Source of the DNA: an uncultured Chloroflexia bacterium
GTDB lineage: Bacteria; Chloroflexota; Anaerolineae; Anaerolineales; Villigracilaceae
NCBI GenBank assembly: GCA_963776475.1
Contig: CAVZMZ010000038.1
Location: 16,741 to 80,740 of the forward strand
DNA length: 64,000 nt
Direction: 5' to 3'
Shown here: positions 5,149-64,000 of the stretch, in pieces
Layout of the letters: the number at the start of each line of letters is the position of its first letter
Numbering within the stretch: position 1 is the first letter of the stretch
Program-made: the position numbers and the translations under genes
The notes under the pieces: generated by a model
Seen by the model: only the letters and a program-made list of their open reading frames with translations
Told to the model about the DNA's origin: nothing
Databases searched by the model: none

Positions 5149-5162
5149 AATAGAGGGAAAGT

Positions 5163-5354: not shown

Positions 5355-5355
5355 A

Positions 5356-5983: not shown

Positions 5984-6013
5984 CCTAGTATTGACCGATA
6001 AAGGAGAAACCTT

Positions 6014-6172: not shown

Positions 6173-6190
6173 CTTTGTGCGTGGCAGGGT

Positions 6191-6257: not shown

Positions 6258-6298
6258 ATAAGTTTATGCTTTACATACGGAAAGCTAGAGTTGTCTGG

Positions 6299-7871: not shown

Positions 7872-8025
7872 AAGATTGCTGCGATTGTTTGGATTTACCC
7901 AATCGTTTTTCTGTCATGTAAAAGACACAGATTGCCCGCATAACCTCAGCAGAACCCGGCCTCCCTTCAATAAGTAAGGGAGGCTACAAAAAGCAGCACA
8001 AAAAGAACAGAAAGTATGGAGAAGC

Positions 8026-10568: not shown

Positions 10569-11497
10569 AGAAACAGATGCTGTCCGCCTCCAGCATGGCT
10601 GGAACTATAACGCAGCTTAGGAAGCAAGGAATCCGCAGCGCTCAGAGGCTTAATCTCTATACACATGGCTGGCTGGGAATTTTGGCGGGTGCTGCCAGGG
10701 AAACCCTGAAGCCCTACTCGACGATCGCCTCCGCGGCGATTGCCTACTTTGCCATCTTATCCTTATTTCCCCTCACACTCTTGAGCATTTCCATAGCCAG
10801 TTTCTACCTTGGCCCGTTGGTGGACCAACAACTCATCCTGCAAAAGCTCGAGTTTATTGCACCAGCCTTGGGCTTGTTATTGGGCCAAAATATTGACGAA
10901 ATCATACGGGCACGCGGGCCAGTAACTATTATCGCTGTAATCGGTCTGATCTGGTCTGCCTCCGCCATCTTTTCCACACTCAATCAAACTCTTAATGTAA
11001 TCTGGAGCAATAAACGCGCTCGCCCGTTTTGGAAAACGCGTGGCCTGGCGATATTGATCATCCTGGCTTTTGTTGGCCCGGCTCTTTTCCTGGCTTCGTT
11101 TGCCGGCAGCATGGTTACCAACCTGCGCCTCTGGTTGCCAGACCAGATCTTTCCGATTGGAGCCGCGCTCAGTTTCGTGGTGGCAATATTGCTGGATATT
11201 GCCTTATTCATGCTGCTTTACATGCTGCTTCCCCATGGATCTTCAACCTGGCGCGATGTTTTACCTGGCGCGTTAGGGGCCGGCCTGCTCTGGGAGCTAG
11301 CCAAGAAAGCATTTTTGTTATTTATTTCCACCTATATCTCCATGTCGAATCTGGTCTATGGTTCCGTGGCAGCCATTATTGCTTTCCTCACCTGGGCATA
11401 CTTGAGCGGTCTCATCTTTCTTTTAGGCGCTCACTTGAGCGTCTCTTATTACCGCCTCAAGCAACAGCAGAATGAAACGGTCGGCCAAATAGAATAG
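10565..11497 (+). CDS. YihY/BrkB (virulence factor BrkB / RNase BN-like) family membrane protein.
   Basis: Six TM segments and YihY-family N-terminal motifs. It overlaps the previous gene by 4 nt. Confidence 0.7.
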   Translation: MKKQMLSASSMAGTITQLRKQGIRSAQRLNLYTHGWLGILAGAARETLKPYSTIASAAIAYFAILSLFPLTLLSISIASFYLGPLVDQQLILQKLEFIAPALGLLLGQNIDEIIRARGPVTIIAVIGLIWSASAIFSTLNQTLNVIWSNKRARPFWKTRGLAILIILAFVGPALFLASFAGSMVTNLRLWLPDQIFPIGAALSFVVAILLDIALFMLLYMLLPHGSSTWRDVLPGALGAGLLWELAKKAFLLFISTYISMSNLVYGSVAAIIAFLTWAYLSGLIFLLGAHLSVSYYRLKQQQNETVGQIE

Positions 11498-28424: not shown

Positions 28425-29630
28425 TTAAAGTCCGGCAGCTTTGCGCAGCGCCGGGGCTTTATCTGTATTTTCCCAGGGGAACTGGACGTCGTCCCGCCCG
28501 AAGTGACCATAGGCAGCGGTCTTGCGGTAGATCGGGCGCCGCAGGTCCAGGTCGCGGATGATCGCACCCGGGCGCAGGTCGAAGTGCTCGAGGATCAGCT
28601 TGCCGATCTCCTCGTCCGCCACCTTGCCAGTCCCGAAGGTCTCGACGTTGACCGAGAGCGGGTGCGCAATCCCGATGGCATACGCCACCTGGATTTCGCA
28701 GCGATCGGCCAATCCGGCCGCCACCACGTTCTTGGCGGCCCAACGGGCGGCATAGGCTGCCGAGCGGTCCACCTTGGTCGGGTCCTTCCCGGAGAACGAG
28801 CCGCCGCCATGCCGGCCCATGCCGCCGTAGGTGTCCACGATGATCTTGCGCCCGGTCACGCCCGCGTCGCCCATCGGTCCGCCGATGACAAAACGCCCGG
28901 TCGGGTTGACATAGTATTTGAGGGCCTTGTCGACCATGCCGGCCGGCAGGGTCGGGATGATGACGTGCTCCATGATGCCTTCCTCGATATCGGCGTGGGA
29001 AACCTCCGCAGAATGCTGGGTGCTGATCAGCACCGTGTCGATGCGCTTGGGTTTGCCGTAGGCATATTCGATTGTCACCTGCGACTTGCCATCCGGGCGC
29101 AGCCAGGGCAGTTCGCCGGCCTTGCGCACCTCAGCCAGTTTGCGGGTCAGCTTGTGGGCCAGGTAGATTGGCATTGGCATCAACTGCTCGGTCTCGTTGC
29201 AGGCATACCCGAACATCATGCCCTGGTCACCGGCGCCGATCAGATCGATCTGGTCCTGGTCGCCATCCTTGGCCTCCAAAGACTTGCTGACGCCCATATC
29301 GATATCCGGGCTCTGGCTGGCGATGGCGGATAACACTCCGCAGGTGTTGCCGTCAAAGCCCTTCTCGCTGCTGTCGTAGCCGATCTCCTTGACGACTCTG
29401 CGGACGAGATCATCAAAGTTGACGAATGCATTGGTGGTGATCTCGCCCAGTACCATCACGAAGCCGGTCTTGGTGGCCACTTCGCATGCCACGCGGCTCA
29501 TCGGGTCCTGCTCGAAGCAGGCGTCCAGGACCGAATCGGCGATCTGGTCGCACAGCTTGTCAGGATGGCCCTCAGTAACCGATTCTGAGGTGAACAGTAA
29601 TTTTGGAGAGGACATAAAAGTGGTTGTCAT
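28425..29630 (-). CDS. metK: S-adenosylmethionine synthetase.
   Basis: The signature [34 protein letters not shown] and the N-terminus [12 protein letters not shown]. Confidence 0.95.
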
Positions 29631-29649: not shown

Positions 29650-29835
29650 GAAATTGCCCTTTCGAAAGAAAGGGCAATTGCACATTGTGCGCGGCTGCCC
29701 TCTCATCTTCCAGATTCGGACGACCATATAGGTCGCTCCTACTGCCGGATTTGGCACCGTGTTCGGCTTAACGCCGACCGGTTGTCGAGGCATCATCGGG
29801 CCGGTCCCTCCGCCTCTCTGGATAAGAGTGCCGAT
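29650..29835 (-). promoter_or_regulatory. SAM-I (S-box) riboswitch with an intrinsic-terminator expression platform in the metK leader.
   Basis: On the minus strand: CUCUUAUCCAGAGAGGCGGAGGGACCGGCCCGAUGAUGCCUCGACAACCGGUCGG.... This is followed by the terminator GCAAUUGCCCUUUC-UUUC-GAAAGGGCAAUU plus UCUAUUAU, and then the RBS and metK ATG. Confidence 0.85.
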
Positions 29836-49909: not shown

Positions 49910-51170
49910 TTATGGCAAGATTTTCCTGCTTGGCTTTGGTTTTTTCGGCGTCAGTATTATTTGGGGAGTGTATAACGCTTTTGTGCCAATTTTTCTATCT
50001 GACAAGTTCCACCTGGCTCCGATCTGGATCGGGTTCTTTATGACGCTCGACAATATTGCGGCGTTGTTCATTCAGCCACCGGTCGGAGCCTGGTCGGATC
50101 GCCTGCGGACCAAGCTCGGACGGCGCCTGCCGTTCATCCTGATTGGCGCGCCGCTGGGTGCTGTGGCCTTTGGTTTTGTTCCAATGGCTGCCATCTTGCC
50201 GCTGTTTGTAGCCTGTACCAGCACACTCATTTTGAGTATGGCGATCTGGCGTACGCCGGTGGTCGCTCTCATGCCAGACATTACACCGTCTGGAAAACGC
50301 TCGCAGGCCAACGGTATTATTAATTTTATGGGTGGCATTGGTACGATCATCGCCTTGCAGACCGGCGGGACGCTTTACAAACTCAGCCCGAGTTTTCCCT
50401 TCTGGATGGGATCGGTGCTGGTTGTCCTGGCGGCACTAATGGTGCTATTTTTTATCCGTGAGCCAAAGAATTATGATGAATCAGAAATTGAACCCAATAT
50501 GTTCGCCAGCTTGCGCGAAGTGCTGAAGGATAAAGATAAAAGCGCATTATGGCTGTTCCTGGCGATTTTCTTCTGGTTCATCGGTTACGCGGCGGTCGAC
50601 GCATTTTTTACTTTGTATGCGAAAAAACACCTCGGCCTTAATGAGGGCGATGGAGCGACTTTGCTTTCCGTACTGCCGCTTCTATTTGTTATCTTTGCCA
50701 TCCCGTCCGGGATTATTGCCAGCAAGATTGGACGAAGGGTAACCATTTCCATCGGGCTGGTCCTGATGACGGCAGTACTTATTTGCCTGTATATCTTTCC
50801 GCCGACAGCGCTGTTGACCCCGGTTACAAAACTGCCATTGGTGGGAATCCCTCTTGTGGAGGGTGGCCCGCGCATGCTTACCCTGGCAGGGGTGTTGCTG
50901 ATGTTTGCCGGAGTTGCCTGGGCCTTCGTTAATATCAATTCTCTGCCGATGGTGGTGGATATGACCAGCGCGGCCCGTATCGGGACTTATACCGGCCTGT
51001 ATTACCTGTTCTCGACCCTGTCTGCCATCGTTGGACCGAATGTCAACGGATGGATCATCCAACTTACCAGCGGAAACTACAATAACATTATGCTGTTTGC
51101 TCCGATCTTTATGGTCATCGCCCTAGTGCTCATGTGGGGCGTCCGGCGAGGCGAGGCGCGTGTTGTTTAG
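49899..51170 (+). CDS. MFS transporter.
   Basis: Twelve TM helices and a DRLxxKLGRR-like motif ([14 protein letters not shown]). The start at MKFNYG overlaps the trmD end. Confidence 0.75.
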
Positions 51171-51229
51171 CGGCAAACAAGAGCGGGAGCCAGTGTGGTA
51201 CATATGAACCGATCAGAAAGAACGCGGCC

Positions 51230-52279
51230 ATGAAAAAATCTCGCTTTGTGTCGGTATTTCTTACATTGCTTATTTTATTAGCATCCGGCTGCGCACCAAA
51301 ACCTGCCGATTGCAAACAGCCGGAAGTTTTTTGCGTTGGCCTGGTGACGGATGTCGGTGGTCACAATGATCATTCCTACAATCAAGCTGCCTGGGATGGA
51401 TTACAACAGGCCAAGCGCAGTGGCGTGATCACGTGGTTGGCTTCCATCGATACAGTCGATGCCAGGGATTATGATGAAAATATCCGCGTCTTTGGCGAGG
51501 CTGGTTATGATGTGATCGTGACGGTTGGGAGTGCCATGGTGGACGCAACCCGCTCCGCGGCGGATTCATATCCAAACACGTATTTTATAGGCGTGGACCA
51601 GGACCAATCGGAAAACCAGAATTTCAGTCCAACCTTGACCGGGCTTGTATTTGCAGAGGATCAGATCGGTTATCTGGCGGGCGCGTTTGCGGCCTTGATG
51701 TCGAAAACCGGCCAAATCGGTGCAGTATGTGCCAGTGATGCGTTGCCATCTATAAAACGATATGGTGATGGGTTTGTGGCAGGCGCTGCTTATATAAGTC
51801 CGGACGTAAAGACGACGGTTATTTATCATAATGAAGTCGGTCTTGATCAGACCTTTGTCGATCCGGATTGGGGTGCGGCGCAGGCGAATTCGTTGGTTGA
51901 CTCTGGTGCGGATATCATCTTTGGTGTGGGCGGTGAGACAGGAAGCAATGCCATTGTCGCAGCGGTGGCGCGCGGCGCCTATGCAATTGGTGTCGATACC
52001 GATCAATATTATGCCCTACCGGTGGCTGCCCCACATTTATATGTAAGTGTTTTGAAGATGATTGCCCCGGCTGTTACGGAGTTGATTCAAACTGCCAAAG
52101 ACGCACAAGCCGGGATCTCTGTTTTCCCTACCGGCAATTTTAGGGGACAGGTCGGTCTGTCGCCCTACCATGACCTGGATTCATCCATCCCGGATGAAGT
52201 TAAGACGCGCATGGCTGATTTGAATCAAGCCTTGCTTGCGGGTCAGATCCAGACTGGAGTATCAGTGACATCCCCGTAA
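51230..52279 (+). CDS. BMP-family ABC transporter substrate-binding lipoprotein (Med/PnrA-like), copy 1.
   Basis: The start MKKSRFVSVFLTLLILLASGCAP with a lipobox, and a BMP-fold sequence. Confidence 0.8.
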   Translation: MKKSRFVSVFLTLLILLASGCAPKPADCKQPEVFCVGLVTDVGGHNDHSYNQAAWDGLQQAKRSGVITWLASIDTVDARDYDENIRVFGEAGYDVIVTVGSAMVDATRSAADSYPNTYFIGVDQDQSENQNFSPTLTGLVFAEDQIGYLAGAFAALMSKTGQIGAVCASDALPSIKRYGDGFVAGAAYISPDVKTTVIYHNEVGLDQTFVDPDWGAAQANSLVDSGADIIFGVGGETGSNAIVAAVARGAYAIGVDTDQYYALPVAAPHLYVSVLKMIAPAVTELIQTAKDAQAGISVFPTGNFRGQVGLSPYHDLDSSIPDEVKTRMADLNQALLAGQIQTGVSVTSP

Positions 52280-52314
52280 CGGGTGGGATGGTTGGCGCAT
52301 GCCAAAATTCATCT

Positions 52315-52343
52315 TGTAATAACCCTCAAGACCCTGTATACTA
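52315..52343 (+). promoter_or_regulatory. Sigma-70-like promoter before the second BMP gene and the ABC operon.
   Basis: TTGTAA, a 17-nt spacer and TATACT, followed by a ~150-nt leader. Confidence 0.45.
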
Positions 52344-52489
52344 GATTGTGAAGAATTATGCTTACTAATCGAAAGTTCAATTAAATAATAAAGGAGGTGC
52401 AACCTGCAATTTGTAGGCTCTACGAAACAGCCCGTTCATTCGAATGCCACTGCTTAACCACATTTGATTATCAAAATTGAAGGAGAAGA

Positions 52490-53596
52490 ATGAAAATGAA
52501 GAAAATGAGTTTCGTTTTCACACTTTTGGCCGCCGCTGCCATTCTGCTGTCTGCCTGCGGCCCGGCTGCCACGCCGGCGACTCAGGCTCCAGCTGCCAAG
52601 ATCAAGGTTGGCGAAGTAACCGACTTGGGCGGCGTGAATGACAAATCCTTTAACGCTCTCGCCTGGAAAGGTGTCCAGGATGCCATGGCTCAATTGGGTG
52701 TGGATGGCAAGTTCCTGCAATCCACCCAGCAGTCCGACTATGCCAAGAACATCCAGCAGATGCTTACCGAAAAGCAGGACCTGATTGTCACCGTCGGCTT
52801 CCTGCTGGGCGTCGATACCGCCACGGCTGCCAAGGCCAACCCGAACCAGAAGTTCGCCATCGTTGACTACACTTACCCGGATTGCTATCCGGGTGCGGTC
52901 GAAGGCAAGGACTGCGGTTCCTCCAAGGACCTGCCGAATGTGCGCGGCCTGGCCTTCCAGACCGACGAAGCAGGCTTCCTGGCCGGCTATCTGGCGGCTG
53001 GCATGACCAAGACAGGCACCGTTGGCACCTTCGGTGGCATCCAGCTCCCGACCGTGACCATCTTCATGGATGGTTTCGTGGCGGGCGTCAAGTATTACAA
53101 CCAGAAGCACACCACGACCGTCAAGGTGTTGGGCTGGGACGCTGCCACGCAGAAGGGTACTTTTGTAGGCAACTTCAATTCCACGGATGATGGCAAGAAT
53201 ACCGCCACTTCCCTGGCTCAGGAAGGCGCCGACATTGTCATGCCGGTCGCCGGCGCGGTTGGTCTGGGCTCGGCTGCCTATTGCCAGACCAGCACGAAGT
53301 GCTTGATCATCGGCGTGGATACCGACTGGTTTGTTTCCTCTCCGGAATATGCCGATGTCGAGTTGAGCAGCGTCCAGAAGAAGATCGATGTGGCCGTTCT
53401 CAAGACCATCCAGGACGTTGTCAATGGCAAGTTCACCGGCGGAACAGTAACTTACAAACTCGCCGATGGCGGTGTGGATCTGGCCCCCTTCCACAATTTC
53501 GACAGCCAGGTGCCTCAAACCCTGAAGGATGAAATTACCCAGGCGAAAGCTGATATCATCAGCGGCAAAATCACTGTTGCCAGCTTTCTGAAATAG
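52490..53596 (+). CDS. BMP-family ABC transporter substrate-binding lipoprotein, copy 2.
   Basis: A lipobox LLSACG. It is similar to copy 1 (GVDTDQ/GVDTDW). Confidence 0.85.
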   Translation: MKMKKMSFVFTLLAAAAILLSACGPAATPATQAPAAKIKVGEVTDLGGVNDKSFNALAWKGVQDAMAQLGVDGKFLQSTQQSDYAKNIQQMLTEKQDLIVTVGFLLGVDTATAAKANPNQKFAIVDYTYPDCYPGAVEGKDCGSSKDLPNVRGLAFQTDEAGFLAGYLAAGMTKTGTVGTFGGIQLPTVTIFMDGFVAGVKYYNQKHTTTVKVLGWDAATQKGTFVGNFNSTDDGKNTATSLAQEGADIVMPVAGAVGLGSAAYCQTSTKCLIIGVDTDWFVSSPEYADVELSSVQKKIDVAVLKTIQDVVNGKFTGGTVTYKLADGGVDLAPFHNFDSQVPQTLKDEITQAKADIISGKITVASFLK

Positions 53597-53682
53597 TCTG
53601 TTCGTCATGTCCTAAGGGCCGGGGATTATTCCCCGGCCCTTCTACAATAACAATTCATAGTTTTTATCCAGGAGAAATTTGC

Positions 53683-55254
53683 ATGCCACCGGTTTTGGAA
53701 TTGCGTGGGATCACGAAATCTTTTCCGGGCGTTTTGGCAAATGATGCCATTGACTTGTCTGTAGAGAAAGGGAAAATCCTGGCCTTGCTGGGGGAGAATG
53801 GCGCAGGCAAAACCACCTTGATGAATATTCTTTATGGACTTTATAAACCGGATAAAGGGCAAATATTGATCAATGGGGAGGAAGTTGCCATCCACGGCCC
53901 CAGCGATGCGATTGCCCGGGGGATTGGCATGGTCCACCAGCATTTCATGCTCATCCCGGTGATGACAGCCACAGAAAATGTCATGCTGGGAGTGGAACCA
54001 ATCCGGAATGGAATTTTCCTGGACAAGGCCAAAGTAGCTAAGCGTATCCAGGAGATCTCGAAGCAATACGATCTGGAAGTGGATCCACAAGCTTATATCG
54101 GGGATCTTCCGGTGGGGGCACAGCAACGAGTTGAAATTATTAAGGTTTTATACCGTCATGCGGATATCCTGATTTTGGATGAACCAACGGCAGTCCTGAC
54201 CCCACAGGAAGTGGAAGGATTGTTCAAAGTGTTACGATCGCTGGTTGCCAGCGGGAAATCGATCATTTTTATCACGCATAAACTTAAGGAAGTCCTGGCA
54301 ATTGCCGACCAAATTATCGTTCTGCGCAGTGGCCGTGTGGTCGGCTCAGTGGATACCAAAAGCGCCTCCCAGGAAAAACTGGCTGCCATGATGGTGGGAC
54401 GCGAAGTAAACCTGGTGGTTAAGAAGAAACCCGCATCACCCAAAGATGTGGTTTTGAGTGTGAAGGATTTGTATGTCCGGGATGAGCGTCAGAATTTAAC
54501 AGTAAATGGTACTTCTTTTGACGTACGCGCAGGCGAGGTGTTGGGTATCGCCGGTGTACAGGGCAACGGCCAGACCGAGTTGGTCTATGCACTGACGGGA
54601 CTTACGCCGCTGGTCAGCGGGGAAATCTGCATTATGGACAAACCGGTCCACCATACTTCCCCGCGTAATATTTTGGAGAGGGGGGTCGCACATATCCCCG
54701 AGGACCGGCAAAAGCATGGCCTGATCCTTACTTTTCCTGTCCAGGATAACCTGGTATTGTGCACGTATTATCAGCCGCCTTTTGCCAAAGGGCTGGCGCT
54801 GCAGCAAAAGATCATCCTCGAAACGGCTGAAAAACTGGTCGAACAATATGATGTACGCACTCCCAATGTATTTGTGCCGGTATCCACGTTGTCGGGCGGC
54901 AACCAGCAGAAAGTGATCGTAGCACGTGAATTCTCGCGGCCGATCCACTTGCTGATTGCTTCACAGCCAACGCGCGGCCTGGATGTCGGTTCGATTGAAT
55001 ATATCCACAGCCGTATTATCGAAAAACGGGATGAAGGAACAGCCGTGCTGCTGGTTTCCCCTGAACTGGATGAGATCATTGCCCTGTCTGACCGTATCGC
55101 CGTGATGTACAAAGGGCAAATCGTGGGAATTCTGCCTGCGGCCAGGATCAATAAAGCCTACCTGGGCCTGCTCATGGCTGGAGTCAAACCCTCCGAAGCT
55201 CTCGAGACGACTCCCGCCACCATACAGGAAACCGAAGTGGAACGCGTTTTTTAG
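53683..55254 (+). CDS. ABC transporter ATP-binding protein with two ABC domains.
   Basis: Walker A GENGAGKTT and LSGG signatures appear in both halves, 523 aa. Confidence 0.9.
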   Translation: MPPVLELRGITKSFPGVLANDAIDLSVEKGKILALLGENGAGKTTLMNILYGLYKPDKGQILINGEEVAIHGPSDAIARGIGMVHQHFMLIPVMTATENVMLGVEPIRNGIFLDKAKVAKRIQEISKQYDLEVDPQAYIGDLPVGAQQRVEIIKVLYRHADILILDEPTAVLTPQEVEGLFKVLRSLVASGKSIIFITHKLKEVLAIADQIIVLRSGRVVGSVDTKSASQEKLAAMMVGREVNLVVKKKPASPKDVVLSVKDLYVRDERQNLTVNGTSFDVRAGEVLGIAGVQGNGQTELVYALTGLTPLVSGEICIMDKPVHHTSPRNILERGVAHIPEDRQKHGLILTFPVQDNLVLCTYYQPPFAKGLALQQKIILETAEKLVEQYDVRTPNVFVPVSTLSGGNQQKVIVAREFSRPIHLLIASQPTRGLDVGSIEYIHSRIIEKRDEGTAVLLVSPELDEIIALSDRIAVMYKGQIVGILPAARINKAYLGLLMAGVKPSEALETTPATIQETEVERVF

Positions 55255-55266
55255 GAGGACTTCAAC

Positions 55267-56532
55267 TTGACTGCAAACGCAACCCCAACCAATCCGGAGG
55301 CAACCAAATCCTCAGGGAAGCAGAGGCAGGGCTCAAAACTCCTCCAGACATTACTGGTGCCCGCTCTGGCGGTACTGACCGGCTTCATTATCGGAGCCAT
55401 CGTGATTGCGTTATCCAATGACGCGGTCATTGTAGCCTACCGAAACTTCTTCCATGCCCCTGGCGCGGCACTGGCAGCCACCTGGAATGCTATTTCCATC
55501 GCTTACGGGTCACTTTTTTATGGATCTTTTGGCAGTCTCCCTGAAATCTACCGAGGTCTCCAGAGCTATTTTGCAACTGGCGACAACAAACTTATCCTAA
55601 AAGCAATTTATCCAATCACTGAAAGCCTGACTGCTGTTACGCCATACATCCTGGCCGGATTGGCAGTGGCGGTGGGATTCAAGTGTGGCCTTTTCAATAT
55701 CGGTGCGGAAGGGCAATTCGGGATCGGAGCGTTGTCCTCGGCTTTCGTAGGGTACAGCATCCATGGTCTGCCCTGGTATATCCATCTACCGCTGGCTATG
55801 CTGGCGGGGGCAGCCGGAGGCGCCCTGTGGGGGGCCATACCAGGTTTATTGAAGGGGCTTACAGGGGCGCATGAAGTTGTAACCACCATCATGATGAATT
55901 ATATTTCTTACAGTTTGAGCAACTGGTTATTGAACGGCCCGATGAAAGCGCCTGGATTCAGGCCACTGACGCCTGTTATTGATAATTCGGCCATGCTGCC
56001 GCGTTTCTTCCCGGCTCCGTTACGCTTCAACTGGGGCTTTATTGTGGCATTGGCGGTGGCCGCTCTCGTCTATTGGTTCCTGTTCAAGACCACGATTGGT
56101 TTTGAAATCCGGGCGGTTGGTGCCAATCCGGATGGCGCCCGTTATGCCGGGATGAATATCGTGAAAAATTTTGTGATCGCCATGACCCTCAGCGGAGGCT
56201 TGGCCGGCCTGGCGGGGGCAGCCCAGGTGCTGGGTGTCGATCACTGGGTGGGGCAGGGCTTTTCTGCCGGCTACGGCTTTGATTCCATTGCGATCGCCCT
56301 GCTGGGGCAAAGTCATCCCTTTGGGGTGGTTCTGTCGGCCTTTTTGTGGGGCACGCTGCGCAGCGGCGCGACCAGCATGCAATTTACGGCAGGGGTGCCG
56401 ATCGAGATCATATCCATTATCCAGGGATTGGTGATCGTTTTCGTGGCCGCACCGGCTGTCATCCGCTGGATCTACCGCATCCGCGCCATCCGCACCGAGA
56501 CAACCGTCCTGACGCGCGGCTGGGGTAAATAA
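55267..56532 (+). CDS. ABC transporter permease (BMP/nucleoside-type).
   Basis: A multi-TM protein; a TTG start per the track. Confidence 0.8.
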   Translation: MTANATPTNPEATKSSGKQRQGSKLLQTLLVPALAVLTGFIIGAIVIALSNDAVIVAYRNFFHAPGAALAATWNAISIAYGSLFYGSFGSLPEIYRGLQSYFATGDNKLILKAIYPITESLTAVTPYILAGLAVAVGFKCGLFNIGAEGQFGIGALSSAFVGYSIHGLPWYIHLPLAMLAGAAGGALWGAIPGLLKGLTGAHEVVTTIMMNYISYSLSNWLLNGPMKAPGFRPLTPVIDNSAMLPRFFPAPLRFNWGFIVALAVAALVYWFLFKTTIGFEIRAVGANPDGARYAGMNIVKNFVIAMTLSGGLAGLAGAAQVLGVDHWVGQGFSAGYGFDSIAIALLGQSHPFGVVLSAFLWGTLRSGATSMQFTAGVPIEIISIIQGLVIVFVAAPAVIRWIYRIRAIRTETTVLTRGWGK

Positions 56533-56578
56533 CCTTTGATCCGTCATACCAAAAAGACGTTGTGATAATAAGGATTGT

Positions 56579-57847
56579 ATGACAACCAATCTGGCCCTAA
56601 ATAACAAAAAGAAATCCACTCCCCGCACCCGCCTGGTCCCGGGTATTGTGCTTATTATCGCCGGCCTGGCTATCCTGCTCCTGTTTGGCCGGAACATTCA
56701 ACCCGGGCTGCAATCCACGTTTGGTCTCACCCCACAAGGAGATTCGAATGTCATTCCGATCCCGGACCTGGTTCTACCGGCCCAGCCTGCCATCTATGTG
56801 TTGGCGCTTGTAACGGTCTTTTTGGGGGCCTGGCAGTTGGCGCGCGGGATCCGGTCGACTAACCTGCTGGTCGGGCTGGTTGCCTTTTGTTATGTTGCCG
56901 CTTTCCTGGTCTGGGCAGCCATGGGTAGATCGATGGACCTGGTGGGCATGATGAATACCTCCCTGGTCAGGGCTACCCCGATCGCACTGGCGGCCTTATG
57001 CGGGGTGGTCAGCGAACGTGCGGCTGTGGTCAATATAGGAATCGAAGGGATCATGCTATTGTCAGCCATGACCTCCGTCATGCTGGCCTCTTTGACCCAC
57101 AACCTTTACTTGGGCCTCCTGGCTGGGATGCTGACCGGGATGTTCGTGGCAGCCCTGCACGCCATACTGGTCATCCAATTCAGGGTTGATCAGATCATCA
57201 GCGGCGTGGCCGTCAATATTGTTGGAGCGGGTGCCTCCAGTTTCATTTCCAACCGCTACCTGCAAATATCCAATACTCTCAATAATTCCGGGGTTTTCCC
57301 CAATTTAGCGATCCCCGGCCTTGTAAAAATCCCGATCCTGGGGCCGGTCCTTTTTGAGAACAACATCATGGTTTACCTCATGCTTATCCTGGTGGCAGTC
57401 ACCTTTGTGGTGCTGTTCTATACACGCTGGGGACTGCGCACCCGCGCGGTGGGTGAACATCCCAAGGCGGCGGATACACTGGGTATCAATGTTTACATGA
57501 TGCGTTATGTGAATGTGATCCTGGGCGGCATGATCGCCGGGATGGGCGGAGCCTACTTCACCATCGGTTCGGTTGGGCGGTTCGACAAACTCATGACGGC
57601 CGGTAAGGGTTTCATCGGCCTGGCGGCCATGATTTTCGGCAACTGGAACCCGATCGGAGCACTGGGTTCATCATTGATTTTCGGCTTTGCTGACAGCCTG
57701 CAGATCAAGATGCAGATTTTGAGCATTCCCATCCCGACTGAATTCCTGCAAATGGCTCCATATATTGTAACAATCGTTGTCTTAGCCGGCCTGGTAGGTC
57801 GGGTCCACACGCCTGCGGCAGATGGCACACCCTACATAAAACAATAA
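56579..57847 (+). CDS. ABC transporter permease (second).
   Basis: A multi-TM protein, paralogous to the previous one. Confidence 0.85.
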   Translation: MTTNLALNNKKKSTPRTRLVPGIVLIIAGLAILLLFGRNIQPGLQSTFGLTPQGDSNVIPIPDLVLPAQPAIYVLALVTVFLGAWQLARGIRSTNLLVGLVAFCYVAAFLVWAAMGRSMDLVGMMNTSLVRATPIALAALCGVVSERAAVVNIGIEGIMLLSAMTSVMLASLTHNLYLGLLAGMLTGMFVAALHAILVIQFRVDQIISGVAVNIVGAGASSFISNRYLQISNTLNNSGVFPNLAIPGLVKIPILGPVLFENNIMVYLMLILVAVTFVVLFYTRWGLRTRAVGEHPKAADTLGINVYMMRYVNVILGGMIAGMGGAYFTIGSVGRFDKLMTAGKGFIGLAAMIFGNWNPIGALGSSLIFGFADSLQIKMQILSIPIPTEFLQMAPYIVTIVVLAGLVGRVHTPAADGTPYIKQ

Positions 57848-57868
57848 CCTGACTCGGGCAATCACAAT

Positions 57869-57907
57869 TCAGGGACGACGGAACTCCGTCGTCCCTGAAT
57901 TATTTTC
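57869..57907 (+). terminator. Intrinsic terminator of the ABC operon.
   Basis: CAGGGACGACGG-AACT-CCGTCGTCCCTG followed by AATTATTTTCG. Confidence 0.65.
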
Positions 57908-58067
57908 GAATCGAAAGATGAAAATCTTGTCACTAGAGTACGAGATCTCCAGACTTTGTGTTCCGAACAGGTCTGCTACGCACGCCCGGGTTTGTTCGTA
58001 TGTAATATGGACTCCGTGAAAATGCGGTATAGTTGCTTTTTCTAAGGATAGAAAAGGAGTAAGAACA

Positions 58068-60071
58068 ATGATTCAGATATTGATCGGCGCAGGGGTCATC
58101 TTCCTGCTGATCCTTTTGATCGTAATTCTCTCTGGGATTCGCTTTATCCCCAATAACCGGATTGGCATGATCGAAAAACGGTGGAGTTCCAAGGGTTCCG
58201 TCAAAGGCGGACTGATCGCCCTGAAAGGCGAGGCAGGCTACCAGCCACAGATCCTGCGTGGCGGGCTGCATTACCTGATGCCGATCCAGTACGTCGTCCA
58301 TATGGCGCCGCTGGTGACCATCTCCCAAGGCAAAATCGGCTACATCTTTGCCCGGGATGGCAAGCAGCTTGACCCGGCGCAGGTACTGGCTTCCAATGCC
58401 ACCGTCCAGGATTTCCAGGATGTGGAAGGGTTCTTGAAAAATGGCGGGCAACGCGGACCTCAACGCCGTATCCTGCGTGAAGGCACGTATGCTTTTAACC
58501 TGGTCCAATTCATCGTGATTACCGAAGAGCGTGTTTACGCGCTATCGCTCAGCAAGGAAGAAGCGGATACCGTCCGCAGCATGGCCGAGGTGATCGGGCA
58601 GCGCTACGGCTTCCGTCCGGTGGTGATTAAAGACACGGATGACACGGTCGGGGTTGTCACCGTGCATGACGGTCCGTCCCTGGTCCAGGGTGAAATTATC
58701 GCTCCGATTATGGGTGATGTTGCGGCACAAGAAGGGACCTACCATAACAGTTTCCAGGATGCCGATAAATTCCTGGCGGCCGGGGGTATGCGCGGCCGCC
58801 AGTTGCAAGTGCTGGTGGAAGGTACCTATTACATCAACCGCTTATTCGCCACCGTGGAAATGATCCAGAAATCTGTCATCGAAGTCGGTAATGTGGGCGT
58901 GGTGGTTTCGTACACCGGCGCCATGGGCGCCGACCTCTCGGGCAAGGATTACCGGCATGGTGAATTAGCTTCCAAAGGCAATCGCGGCGTTTGGAACGAA
59001 CCGCTTCTGCCCGGCAAATATGCGTTCAATACCTATGCCGGAAAAATGATCTCTGTCCCGACCACCAACTTCATCCTGAAATGGATCCGCAGCAAATCGG
59101 GCGCCCATCATTATGATGAGAACCTGTCCGAGGTCTCGCTCATTACCAAGGATGCCTTTGAACCCTCCCTGCCGCTCTCGGTGGTGGTGCATATTGACTA
59201 CCAGATGGCTCCGCTCGTCATCCAACGCTTCGGGGATATCAAGAAATTAGTGGAGCAGACCCTCGACCCAATGGTGTCGGCATACTTCAAGAACGTTGGC
59301 CAGACGCGCACACTCATCCAACTTTTGCAGGAACGCAGTGCCATCCAGCAACAGGCCAGCACCGAGATGAAGGAAAAGTTTGCCCATTACAACCTGCAAT
59401 TGGAAGAAGTTTTGATCGGCACGCCCTCCTCACCCGCGAACGATACCCAAATCGAAACCATCCTTACCCAACTGCGCTCCCGGCAAATTGCCACCGAGCA
59501 GGTGGAAACCTATAACCGGCAGGAACAGGCTGCCGTTAAGGAACGCGAACTGCGTGAGGCCGAGTCGCGTGCCCAGATGCAGACCAAAATGACCGAGGCC
59601 GAGCTGAGTATCAATATTCAGACCAACCAGGGCAAGGCCGAATACCAGCGCTCGATCCAGCAAGCTTCCCAGATCCGCGCCCTGGCCGAAGCGGAATCCG
59701 AAAGGATCGCCCGCATCGGTATTGCCCAGGCGCTGGCGACCGAGGAACAAGTGCGGGCTTATGGCGGTCCGCAGTTCCAGGTGACTCAGCAGGTGCTCAA
59801 CCGCTTCTCTGAAGCCATCCAGGCCTCCGGAGTGGATGTGGTCCCGCGCGTGGTGGTCAGTGGCGGCGGCAGAGGCGATGGCGAACAAGGCAGCAGTACC
59901 AGCAGCATCATGGAGGCTTTGTTGACCATGCTGCTCTCCGACCGGTTCGGCGCAATGGCGCAGGAAGCACAACGTGCTCCGCGTTCCCCGGAAGCCGAAG
60001 CCCTGCGTGAACAGATCCGCAAGGATATGCAGAATAAAACCAGCCAGCCGGAAGAAAAGAAAAAGAAATAA
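58068..60071 (+). CDS. Flotillin-like SPFH/band-7 domain protein (YqiK-like) with a long coiled-coil C-terminus.
   Basis: An N-terminal TM helix, an SPFH core, and an extended EA-rich helical region, 667 aa. Confidence 0.8.
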   Translation: MIQILIGAGVIFLLILLIVILSGIRFIPNNRIGMIEKRWSSKGSVKGGLIALKGEAGYQPQILRGGLHYLMPIQYVVHMAPLVTISQGKIGYIFARDGKQLDPAQVLASNATVQDFQDVEGFLKNGGQRGPQRRILREGTYAFNLVQFIVITEERVYALSLSKEEADTVRSMAEVIGQRYGFRPVVIKDTDDTVGVVTVHDGPSLVQGEIIAPIMGDVAAQEGTYHNSFQDADKFLAAGGMRGRQLQVLVEGTYYINRLFATVEMIQKSVIEVGNVGVVVSYTGAMGADLSGKDYRHGELASKGNRGVWNEPLLPGKYAFNTYAGKMISVPTTNFILKWIRSKSGAHHYDENLSEVSLITKDAFEPSLPLSVVVHIDYQMAPLVIQRFGDIKKLVEQTLDPMVSAYFKNVGQTRTLIQLLQERSAIQQQASTEMKEKFAHYNLQLEEVLIGTPSSPANDTQIETILTQLRSRQIATEQVETYNRQEQAAVKERELREAESRAQMQTKMTEAELSINIQTNQGKAEYQRSIQQASQIRALAEAESERIARIGIAQALATEEQVRAYGGPQFQVTQQVLNRFSEAIQASGVDVVPRVVVSGGGRGDGEQGSSTSSIMEALLTMLLSDRFGAMAQEAQRAPRSPEAEALREQIRKDMQNKTSQPEEKKKK

Positions 60072-60095
60072 TCGAGTTTTCCATCAGGAGCGACT

Positions 60096-60867
60096 ATGAC
60101 CCGTTGGATCGCCATTACGCGCGCAGTCAGCAGTTCCATCGCTGACTGCGAACTGACCTTCCTGGAGCGCATCCCGATCGACCTGGAGAATGCCCGCCGC
60201 CAGCACCATGCCTACGAAGCAGTCTTGCGTTCCATGGGCGTGGAAGTGATGTCGCTGCCCGAAGAGCCGCACCTGCCCGACGCAGTCTTCGTTGAAGATG
60301 TTGCCATCCTGCTGGATGAGTGCGCTGTCCTCACCCGGCCCGGGGCCGAATCGCGGCGGCCCGAGTCGGCATCCATCTCCCGGGCACTGGCGCCTTACCG
60401 GGAACTGCTAAGCATCCAGGCTCCTGCCACGGTCGATGGCGGCGATGTACTTGTGGTTGGCAGGCAGGTTTTCGTCGGATTGTCCAGCCGCTCGAACCGA
60501 TCTGCAATTGAGCAGATGCAGGCTTTCCTGGCTCCCTTTGGCTATTCTGTGAGGGCCATCCCGGTCAGCGGCTGCCTGCATCTGAAATCGGCTGTGACGC
60601 AGGTGGCGCAAGCCACCTTGTTGATCAATCCGGATTGGGTGGAAAGGAAGAACTTCCCCGGCATGGAGTTCATCGAGGTGGATTTCCTCCGAGCCTTATG
60701 CAGCCAATGCCTTGCTGGTCGGGGAAAAGCTGCTCTACCAACCCGCCTACCCAAGAACGCTCTCCCGGCTGGCTGCGGCGGAAATCCATCCGCTGCTTGT
60801 GGACCAGTCTGAACTGGCCAAGGCCGAGGGAGCCCTGACGTGTTGTTCGCTGATCTTCAAGGGGTAA
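60096..60867 (+). CDS. Amidinotransferase-superfamily enzyme (dimethylarginine dimethylaminohydrolase-like) with an apparent frameshift near 60690.
   Basis: The C-terminus EPYAANALLVGEKLLYQPAYPRT...AEGALTCCSLIFKG, with its catalytic Cys, is in the +1 frame relative to ORF 60096..60812. Confidence 0.65.
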
Positions 60868-60879
60868 ATCCAACCTTCC

Positions 60880-60915
60880 GAATTTTGACTTTTTGCTCAA
60901 TCTGGTAACGCCCCT
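60880..60915 (+). terminator. Intrinsic terminator after the DDAH-like gene.
   Basis: GCCCCTGGC-AGAACACC-GCCAGGGGC followed by ATTCCTTATT. Confidence 0.55.
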
Positions 60916-61032
60916 GGCAGAACACCGCCAGGGGCATTCCTTATTGCAGAAAGTTAGCTTGTCAGGGGGTGCGTGAATGAGAACTTCACATCAATTTAGT
61001 GACATCTATCATATTCCCCGATTTGAATGTGA

Positions 61033-61446
61033 GTGTATAATGCATTCGGAGCCATGAATATGATCAGAACCGAACTACCTTCCAGTCTCGCCAAAGTAAG
61101 TGACCTATTACAAGTCATCAGCCCTGAAGTACGCCTGGAAATTCTGATGGCGATCGGCGCGGGTGAGGCTTGTGTCTGTCACCTGGAGGCCAGTCTTGGG
61201 TACCGCCAGGCCTATATATCCCAGAATCTAATGGCGCTGCGCGAAGCCGGCTTGCTCAGCACCCGGCGGGATGGCAAGTACATTTATTATCGATTGGAAA
61301 AACCGGAAATCATGGAGATGGTGGATCTGGCAGTCCGCCTGTCAGGCTTTGATGTTTCGAGTATAACCGCCAAGGTTAATCAGGCGAAGGCCAGCTGCGA
61401 TTGTCCCAACTGTTCCACTCAAAAAGAAACTCATGTCGTCAAATAA
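61033..61446 (+). CDS. ArsR/SmtB-family metalloregulator with a Cys-rich C-terminal tail.
   Basis: An HTH with the CVCHLE metal-site motif and a C-terminal CDCPNC. The likely true start is the ATG at 61060, 9 nt after GGAG. Confidence 0.7.
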   Translation: MYNAFGAMNMIRTELPSSLAKVSDLLQVISPEVRLEILMAIGAGEACVCHLEASLGYRQAYISQNLMALREAGLLSTRRDGKYIYYRLEKPEIMEMVDLAVRLSGFDVSSITAKVNQAKASCDCPNCSTQKETHVVK

Positions 61447-62683
61447 AGAATACTGGCTGGAAATAGACGAGCAAGGCCGGCTGGTATTGCCACCAGAGGC
61501 CTTGGAGCTGTACGGGATCCGACCGGGCACGCAGATCCTGATGCAGGCAAGCCAAAACGGACTGAGCCTGCAACGGCCGACTACGCACCTGGCTAAAGTC
61601 TATGTTGAACCAACTTCGCGCTGCAACCTGACCTGCCGGACCTGCATTCGCAATGCATGGAAAGAACAGCAGGGCGATATGTCGGCGGCGACATGGGAGC
61701 GCGTGATCGAAAGCCTGAAAGCGCTGACCTTCCGCCCGGATGTTTTCTTCGGTGGCTTTGGCGAACCGCTCCTGCTGCCGGATATCGCCCGGATGGTATC
61801 TCAGGCTAAATCCGTGGCCGCCAAGGTCGAGTTGATCACCAACGGCATCCTGTTGACCGAGGAGCGCTCACGGGAACTGATCGATGCCGGTTTGGATATC
61901 CTGTGGATTTCTCTGGATGGCGCCACCCCGGAAAGTTATAGCGATGTCCGGTTGGGAGCAGTTCTGCCGCAGGTCCTTGAAAATATCAAACGCCTGGCGA
62001 TCATGCGGCATGAAACCGCCCGCATTCCTGAGATCGGCATCTCCTTTGTGGCAATGCGTCGAAATATTGCCGATCTGCCGGCCCTGATCAGGATCAGTCA
62101 AAAATTTGGTATTTCACGATTTATGGTGACGAATGTCCTGCCTTACACACAGGAGATGTGCAAGGAAATGCTTTATACACGCAGCCTGGATATGCTGGAC
62201 ACAACCCCTTCGCCATGGGCGCCGCGCATCGACCTGCCGCGCATTGACCTGAATGATGCCAGCCAGGAGGCGATCATCCACACGATGCGCTACAGGAGCA
62301 ATGTTCATTTGAACGGCGTAACGCTGGGGCATGACCGGGGGCGCTGCCCGTTCATAGAACGGGGTTCGGTAGTGGTGGGTTGGAACGGGGCAGTCAGCCC
62401 GTGCCTGGCCTTGATGCATGGCTACGACACCTTTCTAAACGATCAACGCAGGACGGTACGCCAGTGTGTATATGGCAACCTCCAGGAGCAGAGTCTTTTG
62501 TCGATCTGGGAGGCGCAGGAGTACGCCGCTTTCCGCAGGCACGTCCAGGAATTCGACTTTTCTCCGTGTACCTGGTGCGGCGGCTGCGAATTGATCGATA
62601 ACAATGAAGAAGATTGCTTTGGCAATATGTTTCCCACATGCGGCGGTTGTCTATGGGCGCAAGGTGTGATCCGGTGCCCGTAG
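61433..62683 (+). CDS. Radical SAM protein with a C-terminal SPASM domain and an N-terminal SpoVT/AbrB-like swapped-hairpin domain.
   Basis: A CNLTCRTC (CxxxCxxC) cluster and a C-terminal Cys-rich SPASM region (CPFIERG...CTWCGGCELID...CGGC). The N-terminus reads EYWLEIDEQGRLVLPPEALELYGIRPGTQI. Confidence 0.8.
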   Translation: MSSNKEYWLEIDEQGRLVLPPEALELYGIRPGTQILMQASQNGLSLQRPTTHLAKVYVEPTSRCNLTCRTCIRNAWKEQQGDMSAATWERVIESLKALTFRPDVFFGGFGEPLLLPDIARMVSQAKSVAAKVELITNGILLTEERSRELIDAGLDILWISLDGATPESYSDVRLGAVLPQVLENIKRLAIMRHETARIPEIGISFVAMRRNIADLPALIRISQKFGISRFMVTNVLPYTQEMCKEMLYTRSLDMLDTTPSPWAPRIDLPRIDLNDASQEAIIHTMRYRSNVHLNGVTLGHDRGRCPFIERGSVVVGWNGAVSPCLALMHGYDTFLNDQRRTVRQCVYGNLQEQSLLSIWEAQEYAAFRRHVQEFDFSPCTWCGGCELIDNNEEDCFGNMFPTCGGCLWAQGVIRCP

Positions 62684-62707
62684 AACGATATTGAAAAGGA
62701 TTAAAGA

Positions 62708-63157
62708 ATGTTAGATTTCCTGGAAACCACGGTTGACAAATTCACCTTCAAGGTGGCCACTGACCGTTTTTATTCTTCGGAAGGGGTCTGGGTGAAAGAG
62801 GAGAACGGACATGTTCGTATTGGGCTGTCTGACTTTGTCCAGCAGCGCAGCGGGGATGTGGCCTTTGCGGATGTCAAGACGGCTGGGACAATCCTGGCTA
62901 TTGGAGATGAGGTGGCGAGCATCGAGACGATCAAGGTGAATATTGCCTACACAGCGCCGATCAACGGAAAAATTGCAGAAGTAAACCCTGCCATGATTGA
63001 CGCTCCGGAGGCAATCAACCAGGACCCGTACGGGAACGGTTGGCTGGCAGTCATGGAAGTCACCAATTGGGATGAAGAGAAGACCAAACTGCTCGACCCG
63101 CAGGCCTACTTCGAGATCATGAAGGGCCAGGCGCAAGAGGAAACAAAGAAACTATGA
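62708..63157 (+). CDS. Glycine-cleavage H-protein-like lipoyl carrier.
   Basis: Matches GcvH, including the lipoyl-lysine motif ASIETIKVNIAYTAPINGKIAEVN. Confidence 0.75.
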   Translation: MLDFLETTVDKFTFKVATDRFYSSEGVWVKEENGHVRIGLSDFVQQRSGDVAFADVKTAGTILAIGDEVASIETIKVNIAYTAPINGKIAEVNPAMIDAPEAINQDPYGNGWLAVMEVTNWDEEKTKLLDPQAYFEIMKGQAQEETKKL

Positions 63158-63582
63158 TGGAAAAAATTAAAAAAGTTGTTATCGTGCCCTGCAGCGGGAT
63201 CGGCAAACCGTACGGCACTGTCAGCCGTGAAGCAGCCTACGCTGTTAGCGAAGATCTGCGTCCCGAACAGACCCAACTAGTCCCGCTGGCTTTGTTGGTT
63301 CTCGGTGACGAAGCCTCCAGGTCGGTAGTCGCCGAATACCCGGCGATTACCATCGATGGCTGCAAGCTGGCCTGTGCTGCGAAAATGGTTCAACAAAGCG
63401 GCGGCATGGTCGCACACGAAATAGCCGTTCTGGATGTTTACCGTCGCCACAAGGACCTCAAGCCCCTGGGCATCGCCGAACTCAACGAGGGCGGGCAAAA
63501 ATTGGCGCGGGTCCTGGCCGAGGAAATGACCACCATGGTCGACGGTCTTATCTCCAGAAAACAGGGAGGCGAAAATGCCTGA
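63154..63582 (+). CDS. DGC-domain protein (putative zinc-binding, Cys-rich).
   Basis: VVIVPCSGIGK and the conserved ITIDGCKLACAAK. Confidence 0.6.
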   Translation: MMEKIKKVVIVPCSGIGKPYGTVSREAAYAVSEDLRPEQTQLVPLALLVLGDEASRSVVAEYPAITIDGCKLACAAKMVQQSGGMVAHEIAVLDVYRRHKDLKPLGIAELNEGGQKLARVLAEEMTTMVDGLISRKQGGENA

Positions 63583-64000
63583 GCTGCCCAGGAAGAAAGT
63601 TGGGATCGTCTCCTGCTCCGGGGAAGAACTGCCGGAGGTACGGTGACACGCCTGGCGGCCTTGCGGGTTCTCGAACAACTGCGTCCGGCGGATACGGTCA
63701 CGATCTGCCTGCCCCTATTCCTGGCGGGTGGGGAAGGCGACCGGGCTTTTGCAAAATTCTATCCGACGATTGCCATCGACGGCTGCGACAAGCGCTGCGC
63801 AGCACACGGCACCGAAATGTATTCCGGCAAGCCGGCTGCGAGCATTGTCGTCACCGATCTCATCGCGGAACGAGGCCTGGGAAAACCGGAAGGCAAGCGC
63901 CGGCTGAACGAGGCCGGCAAGCAGGCCGTGGAGGCGACCGCAGCCAGGATGGCTGAGCTGGTGGACGAACTGCTCCAAAAACACTGGAACCGGACGGCAG
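63579..64000 (+). CDS. Second DGC-domain protein, running off the window, with an apparent frameshift at a G-run near 63635.
   Basis: MPELPRKKVGIVSCSGEELPE shifts into TVTRLAALRVLEQL...TIAIDGCDKRCAAHG. Confidence 0.5.

Follow-up and report, generated by a model that had tools for sequence, protein, structure and literature searches.

Five co-directional genes occupy positions 61033 to 64000 (+ strand) of the window, the whole 64,000-nucleotide (nt) stretch of contig CAVZMZ010000038.1 analyzed here, and are predicted to form the promoter-proximal half of an ArsR-repressed arsenic-resistance (ars) operon of an Anaerolineae-like Chloroflexota bacterium. They encode, in order, an ArsR-type repressor, a radical S-adenosylmethionine enzyme with a SPASM domain (rSAM), a GcvH-like lipoyl carrier, and two DGC proteins (DGC1 and DGC2), the second incomplete. 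An earlier note on this DNA had reported an uncharacterized cluster; the cluster is real and undescribed, but that it belongs to an arsenic-resistance operon, as indicated by the downstream genes of relatives, had been missed. We tentatively suggest, with a little less than even confidence, that it encodes an arsenite-induced protein-dithiol relay within an ArsR-controlled arsenic-resistance operon and that the rSAM enzyme is not a dedicated maturase of this system. The genes are as follows.

61033 to 61446, + strand: ArsR/SmtB repressor (HTH_5, 35.5 bits; NF033788, 75.4 bits against a cutoff of 55).
61433 to 62683, + strand: rSAM/SPASM enzyme, 416 amino acids (aa) (Radical_SAM PF04055, 61.8 bits; SPASM PF13186, 50.5 bits).
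62708 to 63157, + strand: GcvH-like protein, 149 aa (GCV_H PF01597, 105.4 bits).
63154 to 63582, + strand: DGC1, 142 aa (DGC PF08859, 54.3 bits against a gathering score of 27).
63575 to 64000, + strand: DGC2, the 5′ part of a gene for a 243-aa protein with a DGC and a CxCGSG domain, cut by the window end.

Searches with profile models matched HTH_5, Radical_SAM, SPASM, GCV_H, and DGC, so that the gene calls of the earlier note were correct, and its consecutive, tightly packed, ArsR-led cluster was found with all five genes on one strand. The arsR and rSAM genes overlap by 14 nt, the rSAM and GcvH-like genes are separated by 24 nt, and overlaps of 4 nt and 8 nt join the GcvH-like gene to DGC1 and DGC1 to DGC2, respectively. 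Such overlapping or near-abutting gene ends are consistent with a single transcription unit.

The cluster is truncated by the window end, as had been noted: DGC2 is cut there, and the operons of relatives run on. In the nearest relative available (L001), the rSAM is 93% identical, and DNA similarity starts only at 60978, with 88.7% identity from there to the window end. Beyond the equivalent of the window end, L001 encodes the remainder of DGC2, an OsmC-like protein, a ferredoxin, a Thioredoxin_3 protein (ArsE-type thioredoxin-like), and SBF/Acr3. The window operon would accordingly be expected to continue with the rest of DGC2, an OsmC-like protein, a ferredoxin, an ArsE/MTH895-type thioredoxin-like protein, and Acr3. 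The thioredoxin-like protein of the relatives passes TIGR00412 (“MTH895/ArsE family”), and the Acr3 of the orthologous locus L002 scores 459.5 bits against TIGR00832 (cutoff, 282.8). Other loci add ArsC of the low-molecular-weight phosphatase type, ArsP, or ArsD/ArsA (ArsD and ArsA both in L091), and an AhpD-core protein is encoded within the operon in at least nine loci. The ferredoxin (∼66 aa, 2x[4Fe-4S] type) follows OsmC, with overlapping gene ends, in eight loci.

Two side observations concern these downstream genes. Ferredoxin genes were located in L001 (13330 to 13524), L003, L006, L018, L090, L091, and L092; in L017 (4746 to 4946, immediately before) and L043 (2841 to 3041) an rSAM copy instead has the ferredoxin gene upstream of it. 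Gene callers left the ferredoxin uncalled in several loci, including L001. Some operons encode a “DF family (seleno)protein” (NF049942, 82.9 bits) between ArsC or ArsE and Acr3 in L002 (13983 to 14288), L006 (7491 to 7802), and L018 (8332).

The arrangement was examined in 80 metagenome loci, collected by rSAM alignment and annotated through BLAST comparison with the proteins of the cluster, as well as in five more loci for which GcvH or DGC1 served as the seed; a single-protein query against genome contigs gave three loci only. The genes for GcvH, DGC1, DGC2, and OsmC are contiguous and in the same order in ∼20 of the 80 rSAM-seeded loci and in the five others, i.e., in ∼25 loci, and ars genes accompany this quartet in all of them. 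The order, whose conservation the earlier note had proposed to check, recurs in these ∼25 independent loci at protein identities of 40 to 90%, far more than chance could explain. The quartet of GcvH-like protein, DGC1, DGC2, and OsmC-like protein, often followed by the ferredoxin, is the conserved functional unit. In one variant (L053, 1583 to 2341), the cluster comprises rSAM, GcvH-like, and OsmC-like genes, and the OsmC-like gene directly follows the GcvH-like gene, with no DGC genes between them.

Within ars islands, the rSAM gene is a separate and facultative element. It may lie directly upstream of GcvH (the window, L001 to L003, L007 to L010, L013, and L088), after Acr3, or before ArsR, and in at least 12 loci it adjoins Acr3 or ArsR without the quartet. 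Conversely, the quartet occurs with no rSAM gene within 10 kb in L090, L091/L092, and L094, and synteny between L091 and the window holds on either side of the rSAM gene, with major facilitator superfamily, Bmp, ABC transporter, and Band_7 genes upstream and those for GcvH, DGC1, and DGC2 downstream. Among 45 loci seeded with the rSAM and flanked by 5 kb or more of sequence, 21 have Acr3, ArsP, or ArsC within 5 kb, often directly adjacent, and 15 carry the quartet. Because the rSAM gene shifts position, is absent from a syntenic locus, and is often found with Acr3 alone, a dedicated role in maturing GcvH or DGC proteins is unlikely, and the suggestion of the earlier note that the enzyme modifies its partners is weakened. 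As to L091 itself, its positions 1 to 11153 correspond to 51135 to 64000 of the window; it lacks the DDAH-like gene that precedes the operon in the window as well as the rSAM gene, its ArsR has diverged, and a second ArsR followed by ArsD, ArsA, and ArsC is encoded further downstream.

The regulator carries a putative arsenite-type Cys site. Its CVC motif (C47 and C49; nt 61171 to 61179) lies in the helix before the helix-turn-helix, at a position that we take to be that of the As(III) site of R773 ArsR (ELCVCDL). A second Cys motif, a C-terminal CxCxxC (residues 122 to 127; 61396 to 61416), is conserved among orthologues and is possibly a second metalloid-binding site. Translation probably starts at ATG 61054 or 61060 and not at GTG 61033, since GGAG precedes the former positions and the alignment of orthologues agrees. 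Three features lie upstream.

60910 to 60935, + strand: terminator-like GC-rich hairpin, 3′ of the DDAH-like gene, taken as the 5′ boundary of the operon.
60978 to 61032, + strand: promoter/operator region upstream of arsR, a block kept in four orthologous loci.
60985 to 61012, + strand: promoter-like TTCACA-16-TATCAT, inside the conserved block 5′ of arsR.

The conserved block also contains short inverted repeats (TCAC..GTGA and ATATTC..GAATGT), which could be the ArsR operator.

The GcvH-like protein retains the lipoyl-lysine motif previously recognized in it: K76 (codon 62933 to 62935), in ETIK, an instance of E-[ST]-[VI]-K, aligns with the lipoyl lysine of Thermus thermophilus GcvH (1onl). 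This lysine is invariant in 14 orthologues, and the protein has no Cys. An N-terminal extension, lE..vDKFTF, is likewise invariant and falls outside the alignments to solved GcvH chains. The protein scores below both NCBIfam cutoffs for GcvH (TIGR00527, 90 against 115.85 bits; NF002270, 109.1 against 117 bits), and no gcvT, gcvP, or lpd was found among the 20 largest open reading frames (ORFs) of the window or in the annotated genes of ten Pfam-annotated related loci; a survey of marker genes in the related loci likewise showed no T, P, or L genes. The view that this is not a canonical gcvH, first taken from the absence of T, P, and L genes, is thus borne out, and a role in canonical glycine cleavage is effectively rejected by the neighborhood data.

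DGC1 has three invariant Cys residues, C13, C70, and C74 (in PCSG, DGC, and xxxC). Its model has a flavodoxin-like fold (predicted local distance difference test [pLDDT] score, 90), in which the three lie in adjacent loops after β1 and β3. No relatives of DGC1 were found in the plasmid collection searched. An intact DGC2 orthologue (DGC, 60.3 bits) joins a DGC domain to an orphan domain that contains an invariant CxCGSGIP; this C-terminal domain resembles neither ArsD nor the ArsE-like thioredoxin nor any PDB chain, and it has no Pfam or NCBIfam match. Of the two DGC proteins named in the earlier note, DGC1 stands as described, but the DGC2 ORF is interrupted within the window: it is split over two frames (residues 1 to 21 and 22 to 142), and one G of a GGG run is absent near 63637 compared with four orthologues. 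The break is probably a long-read assembly indel and not biology, as the DDAH-like gene and related contigs show similar frameshifts. Programmed frameshifting was considered and rejected because the lesion is a homopolymer deletion relative to four orthologues and the assembly has other indels. In related long contigs of the same ENA series, frameshifts affect DGC2, DGC1, GcvH, or OsmC (L001, 12152 to 12884; L002, 11720 to 12149; L006, 4839 to 6003; L090, 11153 to 11701; L094, 11596 to 12044), and gene calls there are consequently unreliable at homopolymers. The DDAH/amidinotransferase-like gene (60096 to 60867, + strand) itself looks frameshifted: its Pfam matches end at residue 143 of a 238-aa ORF, and a C-terminal “...EGALTCCSLIF” motif lies in a different frame (60712 to 60867), which fits assembly indel errors.

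The OsmC-like protein, whose gene lies beyond the window end, was characterized from an orthologue, which scores 40.1 bits against PF02566 (cutoff, 27.5) and aligns with 2onf and 2d7v, two OsmC-like structures. The first Cys, at the peroxidatic position, is kept, as is a Glu (in PE) ten residues before it. Ser replaces the canonical second Cys, and a different Cys (in SY[DE]C) is invariant. With the canonical resolving Cys lost, the protein would need an external dithiol.

These features suggest the following relay. As(III) would release ArsR from its operator, and a dedicated lipoylated carrier would then be produced. The dihydrolipoyl arm of this carrier would reduce the OsmC-like and AhpD-like thiol peroxidases, and the Cys-rich DGC proteins and the ferredoxin would act on the reducing side or as As(III) binders. 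No Pyr_redox-type gene is listed in the ten Pfam-annotated clusters of related loci, and a small ferredoxin is present instead. The relay would sustain peroxide and thiol defense while arsenite occupies the housekeeping lipoyl enzymes, with Acr3 exporting arsenite alongside it, and the carrier may also bind As(III), together with the three-Cys DGC proteins. AhpD-type proteins are lipoamide dependent in Mycobacterium tuberculosis. The link from lipoyl carrier to OsmC is the best precedented: H and L proteins with OsmC are described as detoxifying peroxides in Trichomonas hydrogenosomes (Nyvltova 2016, pmid 26794804, as presented in PMC11316075 and PMC5384416).

Several points weigh against the relay. 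First, genes for dihydrolipoamide dehydrogenase and for lipoate ligase or synthase were not seen among the annotated genes of the loci examined. Second, the downstream genes of the window operon are predicted from relatives, and the OsmC-like protein, which departs from the usual type (it lacks the canonical resolving Cys and scores 40 bits to Pfam OsmC), may be no peroxidase. Third, As(III) would itself bind the dihydrolipoyl arm. Fourth, the relay leaves unexplained both the restriction of the quartet to ars operons and the occurrence of DGC with ArsP and ArsE where neither GcvH nor OsmC is present, and these two observations fit direct As(III) binding better.

Direct binding is the basis of the strongest rival explanation, which we consider possible, if on balance unlikely. 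The dihydrolipoyl arm and the three-Cys sites of DGC1 and DGC2 would capture As(III), protect essential lipoyl enzymes, and deliver arsenite to Acr3 or ArsA in the way that ArsD supplies ArsA, while the OsmC-like protein, the ferredoxin, and the ArsE-like protein would keep the thiols reduced. Vicinal dithiols such as dihydrolipoate are a classical high-affinity target of arsenite, and the As(III) sites of ArsR and ArsD use three thiolates; DGC1 has exactly three invariant Cys residues in adjacent loops, and the quartet is found only inside ars operons, beside Acr3 or ArsD/ArsA. DGC also occurs with ArsP and ArsE, and with no GcvH or OsmC, in the As-induced arsR5-arsP-arsE-DGC operon of Pseudodesulfovibrio mercurii ND132 (bioRxiv 10.1101/2022.10.17.512643). 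Nevertheless, a chaperone or sink gives no role to the peroxidatic-type Cys/Glu pair of the OsmC-like protein or to the pairing of GcvH with OsmC, which is kept in L053 in the absence of DGC genes. The C-terminal domain of DGC2 lacks similarity to ArsD, and we know of no lipoyl protein that serves as a metalloid chaperone. The relay and As(III) capture are mutually compatible.

A bolder combination, which we regard as doubtful, gives both halves of the cluster an arsenic-specific function. The lipoylated H-protein paralogue would be an arsenite “swinging arm” that, with the three-Cys DGC proteins, passes As(III) to Acr3 or ArsA, and the AbrB-fused rSAM/SPASM protein would be an anaerobic arsenic-specific enzyme, e.g., one that cleaves C-As bonds without O2 or repairs dithiolene cofactors damaged by arsenite.

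Two regions were delimited in the rSAM enzyme.

61433 to 61585, + strand: SpoVT/AbrB-like N-terminal domain, residues 1 to 51 (subthreshold PF04014 match and AlphaFold model).
62345 to 62680, + strand: SPASM auxiliary-cluster region, residues 305 to 416, with nine invariant Cys.

The protein has both the CX3CX2C motif of the radical SAM superfamily (residues 64 to 71; C64, C68, and C71; nt 61622 to 61645) and a Cys-rich SPASM C-terminal domain (C305, C324, C379, C382, C385, C395, C403, C406, and C415), and in an alignment of 52 sequences these 12 Cys residues are invariant or nearly so. The fused AbrB-like domain previously proposed is only partly sustained: the N terminus scores 16.6 bits against PF04014 (E value, 0.0075), below the gathering score of 24.7, but the AlphaFold model contains a confident β-β-α-β-β unit (residues 10 to 46; pLDDT, 82 to 90), and one homologue (P0012) has a precomputed PF04014 match. 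Comparison with characterized subfamilies, a check the earlier note had called for, gave no fit. The best curated NCBIfam models, TIGR04317 (304.3 bits against a cutoff of 380, with the match covering the full length of the model) and TIGR04311 (250 bits against 400), are both under cutoff, and the functions of these two families are themselves only predicted. The structural neighbors found with Foldseek are generic SPASM/twitch enzymes only (BtrN, SkfB, SuiB, PqqE, and anSME). The 25 best NCBIfam matches are all of the SPASM/MoaA type and include no LipA, BioB, or LipS model, and a LipA/LipS-type lipoyl synthase was rejected on this ground. A role in maturing ribosomally synthesized and posttranslationally modified peptides was rejected because the rSAM moves independently of its neighbors, although no search for a precursor peptide was made.

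Considered alone, the rSAM may take part in arsenic chemistry or have as its target a dithiolene or dithiol cofactor that is sensitive to arsenite, a reading that we judge unlikely. It might be an O2-independent C-As bond lyase, whose As(III) product would be exported by Acr3, or a maturation or repair enzyme for tungsto- or molybdopterin enzymes such as aldehyde:ferredoxin oxidoreductase (AOR). The C-P lyase PhnJ is a radical SAM enzyme, and we know of no anaerobic counterpart of the O2-dependent C-As lyase ArsI. The proximity of Acr3, ArsP, or ArsC in 21 of 45 rSAM-seeded loci argues for such a function, as do sister rSAMs beside AOR and MoaD, which are interspersed with the ars-linked ones in a neighbor-joining tree. 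This evidence is one of association, however, with no characterized homologue and with generic structural neighbors, and it does not distinguish the lyase from the cofactor-maturation option. AOR and MoaD are adjacent in only three to seven of 87 related loci, and the rSAM relatives in the plasmid collection are distant, AOR-linked ones only; the AOR-MoaD-rSAM member of Thermovirga lienii plasmid pTLIE01 (L095) is 31% identical to the window rSAM and lacks the N-terminal domain.

Further observations were made around rSAM homologues. AbrB-fused homologues stand beside a tungsten AOR and a MoaD-like gene, the gene setting from which TIGR04317 takes its name, in L014 (2723 to 5065), L019 (7634 to 9804), and L054 (5160 to 7162), and tandem paralogous rSAM pairs occur in L044, L048, L050, L057, L065, L072, and L077. 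A ∼178-aa protein whose C terminus has a PF04060 “FeS” motif (like the N termini of CFeSP and RnfB) adjoins the rSAM or is encoded within ars islands in 14 loci, which include L034 (2263 to 2796), L006, L015, L038, L046, L048, L056, L070, L071, L078, and L094.

Somewhat less likely again, and in our view improbable, is the proposal of the earlier note that the rSAM/SPASM enzyme modifies the GcvH-like or DGC proteins posttranslationally, by a cross-link or with a new or alternative lipoyl-type cofactor. Peptides and proteins are common SPASM substrates, the AbrB-like domain could recruit one, and in the window and the nine loci of like order listed above the rSAM gene lies immediately upstream of GcvH with coupled gene ends. 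The same gene is nonetheless elsewhere in the operon in many loci, is missing within 10 kb of the quartet in L090, L091/L092, and L094 (including the locus syntenic with the window), and adjoins Acr3 or ArsR where no quartet is present (at least 12 loci) and AOR and MoaD in others. Its 25 top NCBIfam matches, all to SPASM/MoaA-type families, include no LipA, BioB, or LipS model; LipS1/S2 are assigned to the BioB megacluster (PMC10332631).

Very unlikely is a function in sulfur trafficking, in which the GcvH-like protein would work like LbpA of sHdr and carry sulfane sulfur, e.g., where thioarsenic species are made or broken. LbpA shows that stand-alone GcvH paralogues can serve in sulfur metabolism (PMC6067878), TauE, DsbD-like, and ThiS-like genes occur in some islands, and ArsR also scores against the model of the sulfite/persulfide sensor BigR. 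That score (58.9 bits) is, however, far under the cutoff of 155, the regulator has the arsenite-type CVC motif, and no sHdr, sLpl(AB), LipS, rhodanese, TusA, or DsrE was found among the annotated genes of the loci examined. To the last alternative, an ordinary glycine-cleavage gcvH that is a chance neighbor of unrelated genes, we give almost no credence: against its strong GCV_H match and retained lipoyl lysine stand the scores under both NCBIfam cutoffs, the invariant extra N-terminal motif, the linkage with DGC, OsmC, and ars genes fixed over ∼25 loci, and the failure to find gcvT, gcvP, or lpd nearby among the ORFs and annotated related loci scanned.

Elsewhere in the window, a SAM riboswitch (RF00162, 75.8 bits; 29700 to 29828, − strand) lies directly upstream of a SAM synthetase (metK) gene (28425 to 29630, − strand). 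A cytochrome P450 (21840 to 23129, − strand) and a flavin amine-oxidase/desaturase-like protein (24126 to 25661, − strand) are also encoded; together they imply O2-dependent metabolism, and the P450, which counts in favor of the relay, shows that the organism meets O2.

Full-text literature searches found no description of an ars module combining GcvH, DGC, OsmC, and rSAM, in keeping with the statement of the earlier note that the cluster matches no described system; the only useful match was the DGC gene of strain ND132. Several known systems share parts of it. The OsmC/H/L system of Trichomonas vaginalis is likewise described as having a stand-alone lipoylated H-protein outside glycine cleavage, paired with OsmC, in a low-oxygen organism (pmid 26794804). 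The GcvH-like and OsmC-like genes of the present module are always linked and are directly adjacent in L053. In contrast to the Trichomonas system, the cluster has no L-protein gene, and its OsmC-like protein is without the canonical resolving Cys. It also has two inserted DGC genes and a ferredoxin gene, and the unit is predicted to stand under ArsR in an arsenic operon.

In the AhpC/AhpD/DlaT/Lpd system of M. tuberculosis, the AhpD-core (CMD) protein is reduced by protein-bound dihydrolipoamide. Ohr/OsmC lipoyl-dependent peroxidases are described as being reduced in the same way (Cussiol 2010, PMC2903379, as presented in PMC5384416). OsmC-family and AhpD-core proteins both accompany the lipoyl carrier here, but in those systems the lipoyl donor is the E2 of a 2-oxoacid dehydrogenase, recycled by Lpd, whereas here it would be a dedicated GcvH paralogue.

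LbpA proteins of the sHdr system are also GcvH paralogues with a lipoyl lysine that lie outside glycine cleavage in a dedicated operon (PMC6067878, PMC10332631). They differ in being linked to shdr, sLpl(AB), and the lipS1/lipS2 rSAM genes, none of which is among the annotated genes here, and LipS of that system is BioB-like, whereas the rSAM here is of the SPASM type and unrelated to LipS. A GcvH-L/LplA2/SirTM/macrodomain operon was reportedly described in Staphylococcus and Streptococcus by Rack et al. in 2015. It resembles the present module as a stress-response operon with a spare GcvH-like lipoyl carrier and a proposed role in redox defense; here, by contrast, sirtuin, macrodomain, and ligase genes are absent, arsenite would be the regulatory signal, and the carrier is accompanied by DGC, OsmC, and ars proteins.

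Among arsenic systems, the ND132 operon and ArsD-ArsA, an arsenite metallochaperone system, share with the module small Cys-rich soluble proteins beside arsenic pumps. The ND132 operon combines a PF08859 DGC protein and a PF13192 ArsE-type protein under arsenic-responsive control but has no GcvH, OsmC, or rSAM genes. ArsD has a thioredoxin fold, whereas the DGC proteins are flavodoxin-like, and the C-terminal domain of DGC2 shows no detectable ArsD similarity. The nearest comparison for the rSAM is TIGR04317, the “tungsten cofactor oxidoreductase radical SAM maturase” family, which is its top-scoring model; some AbrB-fused homologues also adjoin AOR and MoaD. The window rSAM, however, is under the cutoff, and it belongs to an ars operon in a window where AOR is absent.

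Stand-alone GcvH paralogues (LbpA and GcvH-L), the coupling of H-protein to OsmC, and redox helpers in ars operons are thus of kinds already known. In the literature reached, none of the following has been described: the GcvH/DGC/OsmC combination in ars operons, the orphan CxCGSG domain, and the ars-associated AbrB-fused rSAM family. The module is abundant, with thousands of close homologues per protein in sediment and wetland metagenomes. Arsenite is toxic largely through binding to vicinal dithiols, and lipoyl cofactors are its textbook target; a dedicated, ArsR-controlled lipoyl carrier with OsmC/AhpD and DGC proteins in ars operons suggests that some bacteria defend or exploit this dithiol-arsenite chemistry. 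The module would then be a new accessory mechanism for coping with arsenite: it would bring four or five new genes into the ars repertoire, place the orphan DGC and CxCGSG domains in a physiological setting, and mark a large rSAM/SPASM family as arsenic associated. Were the swinging-arm proposal true, the carrier would be the first metalloid chaperone or decoy to work through a cofactor (lipoyl).

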